From contig JADFWI010000071.1 in the NCBI GenBank assembly GCA_015222985.1, forward strand, positions 1-31,720: a stretch of 31,720 nt of DNA, given 5' to 3'. The notes under the pieces are model-generated. The model was not told where the DNA came from, did not search any database, and worked only from the letters and a program-made list of their open reading frames with translations. This DNA is from Pseudomonadota bacterium. GTDB lineage: Bacteria > Desulfobacterota > Desulfobacteria > Desulfobacterales > C00003060. The translations under genes were made by a program, and so were the position numbers. Below, piece after piece: positions 10,932-20,186 of this stretch. Positions within the stretch are counted from its first letter, which is position 1. Every line of letters begins with the position of its first letter.

Positions 10932-11504
10932 ATGAAAGTCACGTCATCTCCTGCTCTGCCCGAAGTAATTATTATTGAGCCCGATGTTTACAGAGACGAG
11001 CGTGGCCATTTTCTCGAAACCTATCAGGCCGGGCGGTATTTCCAATATGAGATCCCTTCCAGTTTCGTGCAGGACAACTTATCCTTTTCCGGACGAGGCG
11101 TACTGCGGGGATTGCACTATCAAATCGGCAAACCCCAGGCAAAGCTCGTCTGGGTCGTTCAAGGAGAAGCCTTTGATGTGGCTGTTGATATTCGCCGGGG
11201 TTCTCCAACCTTTGGCAAGTGGGTTGGGATAACCCTTTCTTCCGAGAAATACCGCCAGGTCTATATTCCAGAGGGCTTTGCCCACGGTTTCTGCGTGACC
11301 GGCGAATATGTAATATTAGCATATAAATGTACAGATTGCTATGCCCCGAAAGAAGAGCGTGGGATTCGATGGGATGATCCGTCATTGGCTATCGAATGGC
11401 CTGTTGCAACGCCCATTCTTTCAGATAAAGATGGCGCATATCCAACTCTGAAGGAAATCCCTCCGGAAGAACTGCCTGCCTTTAATGCAAGGCAATCAGG
11501 ATGA
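10932..11504 (+). CDS. rfbC: dTDP-4-dehydrorhamnose 3,5-epimerase
   Basis: 'DERGHFLETY', 'FVQDNLSFS', 'GVLRGLHYQ', 'DVAVDIRRGSPTFGKW', 'IPEGFAHGF'. AAGGAG precedes the ATG at 10932 (track start 10884). Confidence 0.97.
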   Translation: MKVTSSPALPEVIIIEPDVYRDERGHFLETYQAGRYFQYEIPSSFVQDNLSFSGRGVLRGLHYQIGKPQAKLVWVVQGEAFDVAVDIRRGSPTFGKWVGITLSSEKYRQVYIPEGFAHGFCVTGEYVILAYKCTDCYAPKEERGIRWDDPSLAIEWPVATPILSDKDGAYPTLKEIPPEELPAFNARQSG

Positions 11505-11972
11505 TAAAACAAGGCTTACCACGCACATGGCGGCTATTGCCTCCCCTCGTCCAATAGCGTCTATGCCCTCCATGGTCGTTGCCTTGATGTTGACACGTCC
11601 GAGTTCGATGTTAAGGAGCGTCGCGATATTGGTCTCCATGGCTCTGCAATAAGGGGCCAGCTTAGGGGCTTCGGCCAGTATAGTGGCATCCAGGTTGTTG
11701 ACAGAAAAGCCCCTTTCACGAATCATTTCGATGACTTTTGTCACAAACACTGTGCTCGAAATGTCCTTGAACTTGGGATCTGTATCCGGGAAATGACGGC
11801 CAATATCTCCCATGCCGGCTGCTCCCAGCAAGGCATCACACGTTGCATGAAACACAACGTCTGCATCAGAATGGCCCATGAGACCCTTTTCAAAAGGTAT
11901 GGTTACGCCACCGAGGACGAGCCTTCGGCCTTGTACCAACCGATGCAGATCGTATCCCAAGCCCACGCGCAT
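11496..11972 (-). CDS. ispF: 2-C-methyl-D-erythritol 2,4-cyclodiphosphate synthase
   Basis: 'MRVGLGYDLHRL', 'GHSDADV..HA.CDALLGAAG.GDIG.HFPDTDP', 'NIKATTMEG...IGRGE.IAA'. Confidence 0.98.
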   Translation of the reverse strand: MRVGLGYDLHRLVQGRRLVLGGVTIPFEKGLMGHSDADVVFHATCDALLGAAGMGDIGRHFPDTDPKFKDISSTVFVTKVIEMIRERGFSVNNLDATILAEAPKLAPYCRAMETNIATLLNIELGRVNIKATTMEGIDAIGRGEAIAAMCVVSLVLSS

Positions 11973-11996
11973 TTGGAAATTCTCTCTCATCAGATA

Positions 11997-13154
11997 TCAG
12001 GACCGGACCACAGCATCCCACGCATGCAGATGGAGTTCATTTTTTCCATATTCAGATGCATCTGAGCAATCCCCTGCAAGCCGTTCAAGAACTGTGTCAT
12101 ACCGGCTGACAACATTTTCCCACAAAAACGACCTCATTTTCTCTGCCAGCCGGATCCGAATTAATTCATACCGCTTATAATCTGAAATTATCAAAAAAAG
12201 CTTTTCCATAAGATCATGTCTGTTTTTATAAAGAAAGTGCTCATGGAACTCTTCCGGAAGTATCTCAGGATATGAAAGCCTGTCAGGCAGCAGCGGTACG
12301 CATCCCATGATCATTGCTTCTATAACGGAGATGCCGAAGTTCTCCTGCATTGCAGTGCTTATTACAACTGCACCCCGTTTAAGCCATTTCTGATACTCCT
12401 CCCGTAAAAGAATATATCCGAACTGAAGGATTTTGTCCTTAAATCTCTCTTCCGCCTGCTTAAACTCTTCAGGTATCAGGCCAAAGTTCTCTCCCATAAG
12501 CGCTATATGAAAATCAAGCCCTCTGTCATTGAGATCTTCAAGCACATTAAAAAATATTTTATAGTTCTTGTCAAACCCCCATCTGTGGTTCCAAATAATG
12601 AGGGGAGGATCTGTCTGTTTCTCAGCATCAACATCCCCGTAAGATGGCAGTGTTATGCCAGGGTATAGGACTCCAGATTTTTCACGGATTTTATCTGCCA
12701 CCCCTTTAGGCCTGAAGTCACGCCCCCTTTTTAGGAACTCCGGTACGGCATTTAGAAAAGCATCCTTATGCATTTTTGAATTAAACACAACAAGGTCGGC
12801 CACAACCGCAGTAGTAATGTTGATTATGCCTAACTGAAAGGCGCCTTTGTCGCCGGGCGGCTGCGGATAAGTCATCTGGTTTTCATGGAAATATGCCAGA
12901 ACAGGTGGGCACGGTAAACCGACAAGTGCCTTGAAATCCGCCAGATTGAAAAGATCGGTGACAATAATACCGTCATATTCTTCAAGCGGGGGGATGTTAT
13001 CTACAATATGAAGCGCGGCCCCAAGCATACGCCAGCGCCAGTTTTCTCCGGGCATGGACACAATATCAATATCATGCGAGGAGTATGTAGACAGTCCGTT
13101 CACAAAAAGCGCGTGCGAACCCTGACAGTATGTTTCCAGAAAAAGGTACTTCAA
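11997..13154 (-). CDS. DUF3524-domain GT-B glycosyltransferase, homolog of animal GTDC1/QTMAN (tRNA-queuosine alpha-mannosyltransferase)
   Basis: 'FLETYCQGSH', 'PGENWRWRM', 'YFHENQMTYP', 'ADLVVFNS', 'WNHRW..DK', 'VVISTAMQENFGISVIEA...GCVPLLPDRLSYPEILP'. TTG start with GAGGTG upstream. Confidence 0.88.
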   Translation of the reverse strand: MKYLFLETYCQGSHALFVNGLSTYSSHDIDIVSMPGENWRWRMLGAALHIVDNIPPLEEYDGIIVTDLFNLADFKALVGLPCPPVLAYFHENQMTYPQPPGDKGAFQLGIINITTAVVADLVVFNSKMHKDAFLNAVPEFLKRGRDFRPKGVADKIREKSGVLYPGITLPSYGDVDAEKQTDPPLIIWNHRWGFDKNYKIFFNVLEDLNDRGLDFHIALMGENFGLIPEEFKQAEERFKDKILQFGYILLREEYQKWLKRGAVVISTAMQENFGISVIEAMIMGCVPLLPDRLSYPEILPEEFHEHFLYKNRHDLMEKLFLIISDYKRYELIRIRLAEKMRSFLWENVVSRYDTVLERLAGDCSDASEYGKNELHLHAWDAVVRS

Positions 13155-13565
13155 AACGGTTCACCTCAGATCATGACATACCTGGACTAACTTACCTTGT
13201 TTCTTAATAATTTATGGCGCTTTTTTTATCAGGAACGAGCAGCAAAGTAAAGCCTAAAGCCCTAACTCAACATGTATCATACCACATCGATGTGACAAAT
13301 ACGGTCATGCCGATTTTGGATTTCAGATTGGGGATCAGGACTCCGTCATTGTCGAAGGTAGTCCCGTGAAATCATAGAGATTGTTCCCGGATCGTTTTTT
13401 GCTCAATTCGAATAGCACGAATTTCAGGCGTCGCAACTCCTTCTAATTTGGGAAAACCCGATCGACTTTGACGTTGCCGTGGATTGGGGATTTCAGGATT
13501 TGTCATGTCGTCCAATTCGTGCTATCAGAAAATCACTTCGTAAGCTGCAATGGAGAGGAGTTTTC

Positions 13566-15131
13566 ATGAAACCTGTTGCACTGATTATCCGCGATGGCTG
13601 GGGCTATCGCAAGGAGAGTGAAGGAAACGCTGTCAAGGCGGCAAAGACACCCAATGTGGATTCGTATCTGAGGGATTATCCATGGACGCTGATCCATGCC
13701 TCAGGGGAGCCTGTAGGGCTGCCCCCTGGCTACCAGGGATCGAGCGAGGTCGGTCACCTCAACATGGGCGCAGGGCGCATTGTCATACAGGAGCTTACGC
13801 GCATCAACGACGGAATGGTGGACGGCTCGTTTTTTCAAGCAGAGCACTTCAAAGCGCTGGTCCAAAACTGCAAGACAAACGACTCAAGGCTCCACCTCTT
13901 GGGCCTATTGCAGGACGAAGGCGTTCACGCTCACTGTGATCAATTGTTCAAAATTATGCGTACAGCCAGAAAAAGCGGTGTGGGCGATATTATTGTTCAC
14001 GTCTTCACCGACGGTCGCGACACACCGCCCCGTTCCACACTTGAATATCTCCATCAATTGAATGATGTCATGAATGACGTGGGCAATTGCCGTGTGGGTA
14101 CCCTCATGGGCCGATATTACGGCATGGACCGTTCAAAGAACTGGGACCTCACCACCACTGCTTTCGAGTGTATCGTAAACGCCACCGGTCGCAAGGCTCA
14201 AAGCCCGGAAAGTGCTGTTGAGGAGTCTTACGCGAAAGACAAGACACCCGATGACATTGAGATGTTTGACGAGTATATCCCTCCCTGTGTGGTTGGAGAC
14301 TACCGTGGAATCAGCGATGGCGACTCTGTACTCCACACGAACTTCAGACAGGATCGCGCCATTCAGCTTTCCATGGCCTTTGTTGAGGATCACTACCCGG
14401 GAAACCGCTCGCGTCGCCCAGATTGCCTGTATGTTGGCCTTAGCCGATATTATGACGAGTTTCCACGTTTCATCCTTGGAGCGATGGGCTCCGGAGGTGG
14501 CATGAAAAACCTCCTCGGTGAAGTGATCAGCAACAGGGGCTTAAAGCAACTACGCCTGGCCGAGACACAGAAATTCCGCCACGTCACCAGCTTTTTTAAC
14601 GGCAAGTCCACGCATCCCTATCCAGGGGAGGATCAGGTTGAGATAAAGAGTCAGTATGACCCCGCCACATTTGCGTCCCATCCGCAGATGAATGCCTACG
14701 ATGTGAGAGACAGGTTTTTTCAACTCGTTAAGGATGGGAGTGAATATGCGCTTATCGTCATCAACTTCGCCAACTGCGATATGGTAGGACACACTGGTGA
14801 CATGGCTGCCGCAACCAAGGCCGTCGAGGTGGTTGACGAATGCGTCGGAGACTGCATTAAGCGACTACTTGAACTGGATGGCGAAATCTTGCTTACCGCC
14901 GATCACGGAAACGCCGAGGAGATGATCGATCCAAAGACCAAACGTGTGAAGACCAGCCACACCCTCAACCCCGTTGAGCTAATCTATATCAGTAGCAAGG
15001 CCATGGGTAATAAACTCAAACCAGGAGGTAAGCTGGCCGACATTGCCCCCACGATACTCAAACTAATGAACATTGACATTCCTCCTGAAATGACGGCCAC
15101 ACAGTTGATTGAAGGCTCATATTTTCCTTGA
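13566..15131 (+). CDS. gpmI: 2,3-bisphosphoglycerate-independent phosphoglycerate mutase
   Basis: 'LIIRDGWG', 'VGLPPGYQGSSEVGHLNMGAGR', 'FTDGRDTPPRS', 'GRYYGMDR', 'NFRQDRAIQL', 'AETQKFRHVTSFFNG', 'NFANCDMVGHTG', 'TADHGNAE'. GAGAGGAG precedes ATG 13566. Confidence 0.97.
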   Translation: MKPVALIIRDGWGYRKESEGNAVKAAKTPNVDSYLRDYPWTLIHASGEPVGLPPGYQGSSEVGHLNMGAGRIVIQELTRINDGMVDGSFFQAEHFKALVQNCKTNDSRLHLLGLLQDEGVHAHCDQLFKIMRTARKSGVGDIIVHVFTDGRDTPPRSTLEYLHQLNDVMNDVGNCRVGTLMGRYYGMDRSKNWDLTTTAFECIVNATGRKAQSPESAVEESYAKDKTPDDIEMFDEYIPPCVVGDYRGISDGDSVLHTNFRQDRAIQLSMAFVEDHYPGNRSRRPDCLYVGLSRYYDEFPRFILGAMGSGGGMKNLLGEVISNRGLKQLRLAETQKFRHVTSFFNGKSTHPYPGEDQVEIKSQYDPATFASHPQMNAYDVRDRFFQLVKDGSEYALIVINFANCDMVGHTGDMAAATKAVEVVDECVGDCIKRLLELDGEILLTADHGNAEEMIDPKTKRVKTSHTLNPVELIYISSKAMGNKLKPGGKLADIAPTILKLMNIDIPPEMTATQLIEGSYFP

Positions 15132-16332: not shown

Positions 16333-17646
16333 TTATTTCAAATAGAAAAGCTCTCTGGGAAGCGGTATTCCCTTGCCCATGGAATCCTCGCCATAGTTCA
16401 CACTGGCCAGGATCCGGATATCACTTAAGGCACGCTTGTCCCCTTGAAATACCACCTCGGGGATAACTTCCTTCTGGATCTTGCCCCCCGCCCATTGCAG
16501 ATCAAGCACACTGCTTGCGTCAAACCTGTCATAGCCCACACATAACTCCACTTGGCCACCGTAGTGCTGGACGATCTTGGCCACGAGCAGGCTCGGCCGG
16601 CTGTGAAAACCCATCTTTTGGGGTACGCCCGCCATGATGGTACCCCGCTCGATATTTTCATTCAAAAGCTCCTGAGCAAGACCCTGGCCTGCCACAAGGA
16701 AGTGGCAAACGTAATAGAGACCGTAATTTACAATACAGTCAAGGATTTCTTCCGGCTTGACTGCCTTGCTCAATTCGTCACGCACTTCGATACAAATATT
16801 CTTGTACCCTACTTCATATAGGTGACGCTCATAGTAGTGGAGGAGTCTGCGGGTCAACTCCAGAAGGTGCAGCACAACCGAGATGTAACCTCGCAAGCTC
16901 TTCAGCCTCATATTCCGCAATTGGAGTCCGCTCCTGTTCACATAAGTGTCAAAGGAGGACTGAAGACTGTGAACGGCCATTTCAAATCGCCGCGCCTGCT
17001 CTTCGTTAAATCTGCCGGGGACAATGGCCTTGATCTCATCTACGCAATGCGGTTGGTAAAAACCGTGCATTTCAAAGTCTCTGGATGCTCTCAAAAACTC
17101 GGTTGTGATCTTTACGATGTTCTTTTGCTCCTCTTTTAGGTTTTCATCGTCAATGTCAGATTCAAGGCGGTTGTTGCTCGGTATCCCAGGAAAATCATCC
17201 CAGACAAAACTGTCCGAGGGCAACTCTATCTCCAGGTGCTTAGCTTCTTCCAATGCCTTCGAAGAGATGGACCGCAAAGAGCTTGTAAGGAACTTGTGGG
17301 TCCTGTATCCTGCTTCCTCGAACCGATCGGTATCAGCCAAATTGTAAAAAGGAAGCCTGATATAGATATGTTTTTGCGAGTAACTCGCCTCTGAGAGGTT
17401 TCTCACGCTGGAAACCAGTTCTCGATAGTAATACCACTTCGAGCTGTTTTTTGCCCCATGAAAATCCAAGAAATCTTCCAAAAGCTTTGAGCTCGAGACC
17501 ATCTGCGCATACAGTTTCTTGGTGAAGGTCTCACGGACAGGTTCACTTCCGTCAAGGTAGGCACAAAGCTTAAGAAAATCCCAGGAAAAATGGTGAACCT
17601 TTTCAGCGAAACCACCGCCTTGCAGAAGAGCTGTTGCTTGATGCAT
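16333..17646 (-). CDS. Large protein with a C-terminal HPr phosphocarrier domain fused to a ~330 aa helical region of unknown function
   Basis: 'GFHSRPS' (His15-type site) and 'RFDASSVLDL' (Ser46-type site), 31 residues apart as in HPr. GAAGGA precedes ATG 17646 (track start TTG 17679). Confidence 0.85.
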   Translation of the reverse strand: MHQATALLQGGGFAEKVHHFSWDFLKLCAYLDGSEPVRETFTKKLYAQMVSSSKLLEDFLDFHGAKNSSKWYYYRELVSSVRNLSEASYSQKHIYIRLPFYNLADTDRFEEAGYRTHKFLTSSLRSISSKALEEAKHLEIELPSDSFVWDDFPGIPSNNRLESDIDDENLKEEQKNIVKITTEFLRASRDFEMHGFYQPHCVDEIKAIVPGRFNEEQARRFEMAVHSLQSSFDTYVNRSGLQLRNMRLKSLRGYISVVLHLLELTRRLLHYYERHLYEVGYKNICIEVRDELSKAVKPEEILDCIVNYGLYYVCHFLVAGQGLAQELLNENIERGTIMAGVPQKMGFHSRPSLLVAKIVQHYGGQVELCVGYDRFDASSVLDLQWAGGKIQKEVIPEVVFQGDKRALSDIRILASVNYGEDSMGKGIPLPRELFYLK

Positions 17647-17698
17647 CAAAAATCCTTCCAAGAATCGGGAATATCCCAAGTTTCTATTATGTAGTTAT

Positions 17699-20110: not shown

Positions 20111-20186
20111 TGGTGGGCCCACCTGGGTTCGAACCAGGGACCTACCGGTTATGAGCCGGTGGCTCTTCCAGCTGAGCTATGGGCCC
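20111..20186 (-). tRNA. ileX: tRNA with CAT anticodon, most likely tRNA-Ile2 (lysidine-modified); CCA encoded
   Basis: GGGCCCATAGCTCAGCTGGAAGAGCCACCGGCTCATAACCGGTAGGTCCCTGGTTCGAACCCAGGTGGGCCCACCA, 76 nt. G1-C72 is paired (not an initiator); C4-G69/C5-G68 are TilS-type determinants; position downstream of rpoD matches E. coli ileX. Ile2 rather than elongator Met is an inference. Confidence 0.9.

Follow-up and report, generated by a model that had tools for sequence, protein, structure and literature searches.

A recently acquired bacterial homologue of the animal tRNA-queuosine mannosyltransferase QTMAN suggests glycosylation of queuosine in some bacteria

Background

The stretch of DNA analysed in this work (the window) comprises the 31,720 nucleotides of contig JADFWI010000071.1 from assembly GCA_015222985.1, which represents an uncultured sulfate-reducer-type bacterium of the Desulfobacterales. 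On its minus strand, at 11997..13154, the window carries a gene for a glycosyltransferase of 385 residues (P0001) that sequence, profile and fold identify as a true full-length homologue of the animal tRNA-queuosine mannosyltransferase QTMAN, also known as GTDC1. The gene was acquired recently by horizontal transfer and stands, as an insertion of this one gene, between ispF and gpmI. We propose that the enzyme may be a glycosyl-queuosine tRNA transferase, and give this reading a probability of about one half; the presence of an animal-type gene in this bacterium suggests, but does not show, that queuosine (Q) is glycosylated in some bacteria.

The tRNA-queuosine alpha-mannosyltransferase (EC 2.4.1.110) transfers mannose from GDP-mannose to the Q at position 34 (Q34) of tRNA-Asp. 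In animals it is QTMAN (GTDC1) that makes mannosyl-queuosine (manQ34) on this tRNA (Zhao et al., Cell 2023, cited by PMC11755703 and bioRxiv 10.64898/2026.06.28.735034). The bacterial relatives are already named in Pfam and NCBI, where they appear as 'tRNA-queuosine alpha-mannosyltransferase domain-containing protein'. Judged by its domains, the window protein is a new member of this database-named bacterial family of putative queuosine mannosyltransferases; what is new from the window is a clear horizontal acquisition of a single gene and the definition of a subclade with the motif WNHRWG. The family is large: a search of 1.8 billion cluster representatives returned 886 clusters related to the window protein at E values below 1e-30, and at least 599 stretches of species-representative genomes fit the family pattern, all 599 being confirmed as relatives by tblastn. 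Its members occur in Thermodesulfobacteriota, Spirochaetota, Planctomycetota, Bacteroidota, Actinomycetota and Pseudomonadota, and the carriers in culture include Desulfatibacillum alkenivorans DSM 16219, Desulfosarcina alkanivorans PL12, Desulfobacter curvatus DSM 3379 and Marispirochaeta associata JC231.

Relationship of the window protein to animal QTMAN

The N-terminal Rossmann half of the protein (residues 3-167; 12654..13148, minus strand) matches the Pfam domain QTMAN_N (PF12038, formerly DUF3524) at an E value of 2.7e-54 and with 183.9 bits against a cut-off of 25, the match covering positions 2-168 of the 168 positions of the model; the domain was also recovered by a six-frame search of the genome. 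The C-terminal half (residues 178-330; 12165..12623, minus strand) matches the nucleotide-sugar donor domain Glycos_transf_1 of the glycosyltransferase family 4 (GT4) type at E 1.2e-9, and NCBIfam holds no specific model for the protein, its matches being weak, generic for GT4 and all far under their cut-offs. In the search of cluster representatives, a protein of the crinoid Anneissia japonica that NCBI names GTDC1 was matched at E 1.3e-61, a value that places the resemblance far beyond chance, and the reverse search with the crinoid protein led to animal QTMAN/GTDC1 proteins. The alignment to the animal proteins spans residues 1-362 of the window protein, with 31-37% identity in each of the N and C domains; these values are hardly lower than the 35-42% observed with other bacterial clades, and the acceptor half is conserved as strongly as the donor half.

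The fold leads to the same family. An AlphaFold2 model built with 86 homologues has a predicted local distance difference test score (pLDDT) of 93 and a predicted template modelling score of 0.91. Its nine best matches among the Swiss-Prot models are all QTMAN; six of these nine, which include the zebrafish, Drosophila, Xenopus, mouse and human proteins, have E values of 1e-29 to 1e-32 and template modelling (TM) scores of 0.82-0.84, and the fly model superimposes on that of the window protein with TM 0.84/0.86 and a root-mean-square deviation of 3.1. The next tier in this search consists of generic GT4 enzymes at E about 1e-14. With these results the first-pass annotation, which had proposed from the letters of the window that the gene encodes a bacterial homologue of GTDC1/QTMAN, is upheld.

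The Protein Data Bank (PDB) search returned no QTMAN structure and no member of the family with a substrate. The nearest solved folds are the retaining GT4 enzymes GlgM, BshA, MshA and glycogen synthase, and profile matches to PDB entries reach only the generic GT4 C domain. These matches, together with the automatic annotation of homologues as 'glycosyltransferase involved in cell wall biosynthesis', would be expected of an ordinary GT4 enzyme that acts on a sugar, a lipid, a small-molecule thiol or a protein, in the making of the envelope, a storage glycan or a compatible solute, and that resembles QTMAN by descent only. We regard such an enzyme as unlikely: similarity to the PDB entries is distant (12-16% identity, TM about 0.65-0.7) compared with the TM of 0.83 obtained for QTMAN, and the motifs of the N domain are specific to the family and shared with the tRNA enzyme.

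These motifs were examined in an alignment of 15 animal QTMANs and 141 bacterial homologues. The first-pass annotation had listed a series of GTDC1 motifs (E.FYGGSH, WHWR, YFHENQL.YP, ADVVVFNS, W.HRWEHDK and others), and counterparts of all of them were found, colinear with the animal enzyme: ETYCQGSH (7-14), WRWR (39-42), YFHENQMTYP (88-97), ADLVVFNS (119-126), WNHRWGFDK (188-196; 12567..12593, minus strand) and VISTAMQENFGISVIEAMIMGCVPLLPDRLSYPEILP (264-300), the donor-half motif being also written as VISTAMQENFGISVIEA..GCVPLLPDRLSYPEILP. The QTMAN_N half thereby contains the signatures GSH (12-14), WxWR (39-42), YFHENQxxYP (88-97) and FNS (124-126). All these motifs are columns that are invariant or nearly so in both the animal and the bacterial sets. 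In the N-terminal half the columns conserved in both sets are E7, G12-S13-H14, W39, W41, Y88, H90-E91-N92-Q93, Y96-P97, A119-D120 and F124-N125-S126, and in the C-terminal half W188, H190-R191-W192, D195-K196, E271/E279, P290, L293, Y295-P296-E297 and W345; in both halves, the columns conserved among animals largely coincide with those conserved among bacteria. Twelve residues are invariant across animals and bacteria, and all are kept in the window protein (H14, H90, E91, Y96, N125, S126, R191, K196, G221, G274, E279 and P290). The EX7E motif of retaining GT4 enzymes (E271...E279; 12318..12344, minus strand) includes one of them, E279.

A maximum-likelihood tree was inferred from animal and bacterial representatives; it is unrooted apart from a midpoint rooting. 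The 15 animal sequences form one clade, with a support of 100 in the Shimodaira-Hasegawa-like approximate likelihood ratio test (SH-aLRT), on a long branch amid a far more diverse bacterial set, and the window protein belongs to another well-supported clade, apart from the animals. The animal enzyme may have come from bacteria, with the reservation that an unrooted tree sets no direction of transfer. The nearest neighbours of the animal QTMANs in the tree are the metagenomic proteins P0194 and P0222 (SH-aLRT 90). Both the profile search with DUF3524 and the phylogeny including QTMAN had been suggested in the first-pass annotation as ways of checking its proposal, and the full-length domain match, the monophyly of the animals and the separate bacterial clade of the window protein are what they yielded.

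A subclade with glycine in the donor-side motif

The Glu of the motif HRWExDK is present in 15/15 animal and in 87% of the bacterial sequences, and the Pro of HRWExDKxP in 15/15 animal and 91% of the bacterial ones; in the window protein these positions are G193 and Y198. The replacement of Glu by Gly had been noticed before as a variant that might shift specificity. The substitution itself is confirmed, but it is not peculiar to this gene: among 121 homologues with at least 64% identity, position 193 is Gly in 113, Ser in 7 and Glu in 1, with Cys, Tyr, His or Gly at position 198 and all other invariant residues kept. The pattern WNHRWG[FY]DKN marks, in these alignments, a subclade, and since G193 is shared by the whole of it, HRWGFDK is a stably inherited signature and not a defect. 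The gene is apparently a functional bacterial member of the QTMAN family, because the invariant columns of the family are all preserved and G193 is fixed across the subclade. In GT4 enzymes generally, the Arg and Lys around position 193 contact the diphosphate of the donor; a change of the sugar donor is one plausible consequence of G193.

The gene and its product

The coding sequence starts with TTG, ends with TGA and is preceded, six bases 5' of the start codon, by the Shine-Dalgarno-like sequence GAGGTG (13161..13166, minus strand), which falls within the DNA segment common to homologues found elsewhere. The choice of this start codon agrees with the alignment of the first residues to position 1 of the homologue consensus, MxILxxEPFYGGSH. 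At the other end, 96 of the 121 homologues terminate at residues 361-362, and the window open reading frame (ORF) reads 24 codons further into unrelated sequence. This species-specific C-terminal tail, together with the stop codon, occupies 11997..12071 (minus strand); DNA homology ends at 12073-12076, the tail is without homology in the rest of the family, and residues 366-385, with pLDDT below 50, are the only ones predicted to be disordered. The isoelectric point was considered as a hint of RNA binding and is uninformative, given that the animal QTMANs are not basic either. PADLOC defence models gave no family at E 0.01 or below for the window protein, and hence no match to an anti-phage defence glycosyltransferase.

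Insertion of the gene between ispF and gpmI

The window is chromosomal core DNA, with rpoD, dnaG, valS, ispD, ispF, gpmI and a NIF3 gene. The glycosyltransferase gene is followed directly downstream, on the same strand, by ispF (11496..11972, minus strand), and its divergent neighbour is gpmI (13566..15131, plus strand), the ancestral partner of ispF at this site. In the closest relative (genome G009), whose flanking DNA is 93-95% identical to that of the window and whose ValS is 97% identical, ispF and gpmI are divergent neighbours with a gap of 316 bp, as against 1580 bp in the window (11973..13552); genome comparison found no counterpart of these 1580 bp in the relative. A QTMAN_N gene was found in 0/30 sampled genomes of the same genus, the closest relative included, while 11/16 other families of the order have one, and in most other congeners ispF and gpmI lie 140-420 bp apart. 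DNA similarity to the nearest homologous genes of other contigs, at 77-85% identity, is confined to 12073..13166 (minus strand), a segment made up of the ORF with its ribosome-binding site; each of those genes stands in a different context. The genomes with these closest copies, whose proteins are 79-82% identical to the window protein, have ValS 60-68% and GpmI 41-44% identical to those of the window; in Desulfatibacillum alkenivorans, which belongs to the same order as the host, ValS is 64% and the glycosyltransferase about 50% identical. The G+C content of the gene is 0.448 (0.459 at third positions) versus about 0.52 (0.55-0.59 at third positions) for ispF, gpmI and malQ. An independent metagenome assembly shows the same order, gpmI-glycosyltransferase-ispF-rfbC-malQ, with a protein 98% identical, so the arrangement is not an assembly artefact.

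A mobile-element signature was sought at the insert and not found: its boundaries show no meaningful repeats, direct or inverted, and there is no stable fold downstream of the gene (z +1.29) and no Rfam family in the insert region. In another genome of the genus (G011), the spacer between ispF and gpmI holds a different insert of 1.8 kb with an ORF of 128 residues (L115, G011:C32:19300-21900); as lengths and inserts differ between genomes, this spacer is a variable spot in the genus. In the window, the spacer 5' of the gene (13174..13490) is made of short dispersed repeats that sequence searches located on many contigs of the genome and the genus. A unit of about 80 nucleotides (13333-13412) and another of about 70 (13410-13490) have 8 more copies each on other contigs, many of them at contig ends, and copies of a third unit (13174-13335) are found in further genomes of the genus; Rfam has no family for the repeats of 13174-13490, which probably account for the fragmented assemblies.

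No terminator-like site or stable hairpin was found between the gene and ispF, which is probably co-transcribed with it. A gene of the methylerythritol phosphate pathway, ispF is essential to bacteria that depend on this route; its transcription probably runs through the glycosyltransferase gene, which argues for expression of the latter. This bears on the idea that the gene is a recently imported passenger, inactive or decaying. The recent insertion of a single gene, the loss of the native stop codon that gave rise to the 24-codon non-homologous tail, the G+C content below that of the flanks and the deviations at positions 193 and 198 could all be taken in its favour, yet it seems to us very improbable: the ORF is intact with every invariant residue, the deviations are common to the whole subclade, the tail is predicted to lie disordered outside the fold, the arrangement recurs with a nearly identical protein in the independent assembly, and the gene lies between ispF and the sole upstream spacer.

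Queuosine pathway in the host genome

The metagenome-assembled genome (MAG) of the host has 3.0 Mb in 647 contigs, of which the window is the longest, and is estimated to be 85% complete. The first-pass annotation had reasoned that its proposal would fall if the genome lacked Q pathway genes and no hexosyl-Q were found. The MAG contains tgt (contig C266) and queH (contig C117), and tRNA-Asp(GUC), tRNA-Tyr(GUA) and tRNA-His(GUG) are all present, so this is not a genome devoid of Q pathway genes; queA was not found in the MAG itself, as described below. The anticodon loop of the tRNA-Asp is CUGUCAC, as in the tRNA-Asp of E. coli and human. The host should contain Q-tRNA. A GDP-mannose pyrophosphorylase of the ManC type is also present (contig C91). 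The match to the pyrophosphorylase/isomerase model (TIGR01479), at G000:C91:1238-2728, is split over two adjacent frames; the cupin (isomerase-type) part stands 5' of the nucleotidyltransferase part, opposite to the order in the fused gene.

Among known bacterial enzymes, GluQRS (YadB, gluQ) alone decorates the cyclopentenediol of Q34 in tRNA-Asp (PMC10690763). It was not found in the order (0/41 over the cut-off), so no known enzyme competes for the Q diol here; for the same reason no pattern could be read from a possible anti-correlation between GluQRS and the family.

Gene neighbourhoods of the family

We surveyed 76 loci of the family from Desulfobacterales, Spirochaetia, Planctomycetota and other groups. 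No neighbour family is common to more than 7 of them, and no polysaccharide cluster was found. The search for conserved partners yielded lineage-restricted pairs only: an RNA 5-methylcytosine (m5C) methyltransferase in five spirochaetes, and tetratricopeptide repeat, GT4 and radical S-adenosylmethionine proteins in three to five loci each. Because there are no conserved partners and the closest homologues stand in differing contexts, the neighbourhood argues against a role in the cell envelope. In the window, the neighbours malQ, rfbC, gpmI and the gene of a CBM48 protein belong to sugar metabolism, which would suit the ordinary GT4 enzyme considered above; these genes are ancestral, though: the closest relative has them in the same arrangement without the glycosyltransferase gene, so there is no functional link between it and them.

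In five diverged Spirochaetia loci the QTMAN-like gene is translationally coupled, by overlap or direct contact, to the gene downstream of it, which encodes a stand-alone NOL1/NOP2/Sun RNA m5C methyltransferase with 253-274 residues (L085:9095-9883, L086:9104-9883, L090:1254-2015, L095:5526-6350 and L097:9085-9894). The glycosyltransferases of these loci are 49-63% identical to each other, and the methyltransferase is unassigned, as it reaches none of the equivalog cut-offs (those for RsmB, RsmF and the tRNA C49 enzyme). This coupling points to an RNA substrate, and the methyltransferase may act on the same RNA; the pairing recalls the m5C38 that the human manQ-bearing tRNA-Asp carries, according to bioRxiv 10.64898/2026.06.28.735034.

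A second association was found in a phage contig (IMGVR_UViG_3300035698_003099; L114:170-4965), which encodes, in this order, FolE, a Gat-QueC fusion, an oxidoreductase, a glycosyltransferase and a DpdA-like transglycosylase. The phage glycosyltransferase has 359 residues, carries the donor-half motif FNHRWEFDKNP and aligns with the family in hhalign with a probability of 98.8%; it has no Pfam match, and in its N half, where hhalign sets FHSS against FHENQ, the QTMAN_N signatures are absent, as would be expected if its acceptor is DNA. The cluster thus appears to link the donor module of the family to 7-deazaguanine chemistry, and the operon predicts a sugar-bearing 7-deazaguanine in the phage DNA. 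Taken together, the spirochaete operons and the phage cluster lend weak independent support to a link of the family with RNA and 7-deazaguanine.

The phage relative also raises an alternative in which the same family acts on another 7-deazaguanine or cyclopentenediol acceptor, namely free queuine, queuosine or a precursor (for salvage, export or storage) or 7-deazaguanine DNA, the enzyme having been recruited for tRNA later, in animals. As the animal clade lies within the larger bacterial diversity of the midpoint-rooted tree, the animal activity need not be ancestral, and in its patchiness and mobility the gene resembles an accessory function. We consider this alternative improbable, slightly more so than an ordinary GT4 enzyme. 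The window protein keeps all the QTMAN_N signatures that the phage protein lacks, at the level of identity seen in the donor half, and no dpdA-like or salvage-transporter gene adjoins the gene in the window or in the 76 loci.

Proposed function

Glycosylation of tRNA-bound Q is the reading that we favour, and the acceptor, the sugar and the physiological role are inferred in what follows. The protein would be a soluble, retaining glycosyltransferase of the GT-B fold and GT4 type, orthologous to animal QTMAN. The role of the EX7E motif in retaining GT4 enzymes is established, and in GT-B enzymes it is the N domain that carries acceptor specificity. In the window protein, the C-terminal Rossmann half would bind the nucleotide sugar, with R191 and K196 at the diphosphate and E271-X7-E279 at the ribose and the sugar, and the QTMAN_N half would present the acceptor. 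This acceptor would be the cyclopentenediol of the Q at position 34 of a tRNA with a GUN anticodon, most likely tRNA-Asp, and the product would be hexosyl-queuosine, with mannose as the sugar, as in animals, or another hexose in the subclade that bears Gly.

A wider reading, to which we would give a little less than an even chance, is that some bacteria make sugar-modified tRNA queuosine, that the enzyme moves among the Desulfobacterales as a self-sufficient single-gene cassette whose substrate is near-universal in the recipients, and that the WNHRWG subclade may use a sugar other than mannose. The cassette would be self-sufficient because Q-tRNA occurs in almost every recipient.

Several observations weigh against Q glycosylation. 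In the MAG, 85% complete as noted, queA was searched for and not found; it is present in 20/24 congeners, the nearest one included, and in 21/21 good genomes of the order, and its absence is most simply an assembly gap. The co-occurrence of the family with Q genes, which might be cited in support, has no discriminating power: queA is present in 50/50 other family-carrying genomes, and 57 of the 59 good carriers in the phylum sample have it, the other two (G104 and G450) having tgt, but queA is near-universal in the phylum (367/373 good genomes), so that this pattern can refute the proposal and cannot support it. Distribution is also patchy and mobile, with 59/373 good genomes of the phylum and 0/30 congeners carrying the family, which is unusual for a core tRNA-modification enzyme. 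The first-pass annotation had known of no description of mannosyl-Q in bacteria, and within the searchable library our literature search likewise found sugar-modified Q of bacteria described nowhere, DUF3524 mentioned nowhere and the bacterial members of the family not treated; PMC10690763 presents sugar-modified Q as a trait of vertebrates. With a pI of 5.4 the protein is acidic (the median of bacterial representatives is 6.2), though the animal tRNA enzymes, with 5.7 to 7.6, are likewise not basic. Two otherwise conserved motif residues, E193 and P198, are replaced in the subclade, which could mean a changed donor or acceptor. Finally, four Desulfobacterales loci have a classical GT4 gene on the downstream side, one to three genes and 0-1.2 kb away, as in glycan pathways, a point that also favours the ordinary GT4 enzyme.

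Comparison with known systems

Animal QTMAN shares with the window protein the architecture of a QTMAN_N and a GT4 donor domain, the colinearity over the full length, the invariant motifs and the fold. It differs in an insertion of roughly 100 residues after residue 175, which is missing from the window protein, and in the E and P of HRWEHDKxP, which are G193 and Y198 here; moreover, the window gene is bacterial, accessory and horizontally mobile. Among the bacterial DUF3524 proteins, to which it belongs, its own features are the WNHRWG[FY]DKN subclade, the species-specific tail and the lineage-specific site of insertion.

The solved retaining GT4 enzymes (GlgM 6tvp, BshA 3mbo/5d00, MshA 3c4q, PimA 2gej) have in common with the window protein the GT-B fold, EX7E and the Arg/Lys pair after the first strand of the donor domain; in contrast, their N domains are unrelated in sequence, identity is as low as given above, and their acceptors are sugars, malate, inositol phosphate and lipids. 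GluQRS would share with the window enzyme the group of atoms modified and the tRNA, in a functional analogy only, being a truncated GluRS of unrelated fold that transfers glutamate and not a sugar. The glycosyltransferases of phage DpdA clusters share NHRWExDKNP and ExFGxSVxE in the donor half; their N half is without the QTMAN_N signatures, their presumed acceptor is DNA and, unlike the window gene, they are part of a conserved pathway operon.

If bacterial members of the family do glycosylate queuosine, a tRNA modification supposed to be peculiar to animals would have arisen in bacteria and be far more widespread, more anticodon modifications would be known from bacteria, and cultivable carriers would offer a simple system for the role of the sugar on Q34. 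The window indicates that the gene can be transferred on its own between sulfate reducers that are only distant relatives, as expected of an enzyme with a universal substrate, and suggests that it can be expressed from a housekeeping promoter region. A search for a different sugar would best begin with the subclade whose donor-side motif is altered.

Other features of the window

Beside ispD, at 16333-17679 (minus strand), there is an ORF of 448 residues that matches no Pfam family at E 0.001; it is kept in the independent assembly, where it is called with 437 residues, and by eye its last 90 residues or so resemble a segment of an HPr-like phosphocarrier (GFHSRPS...). A tRNA-Met(CAT) gene lies at 20111-20186 (minus strand), between the gene of the NIF3 family and rpoD.

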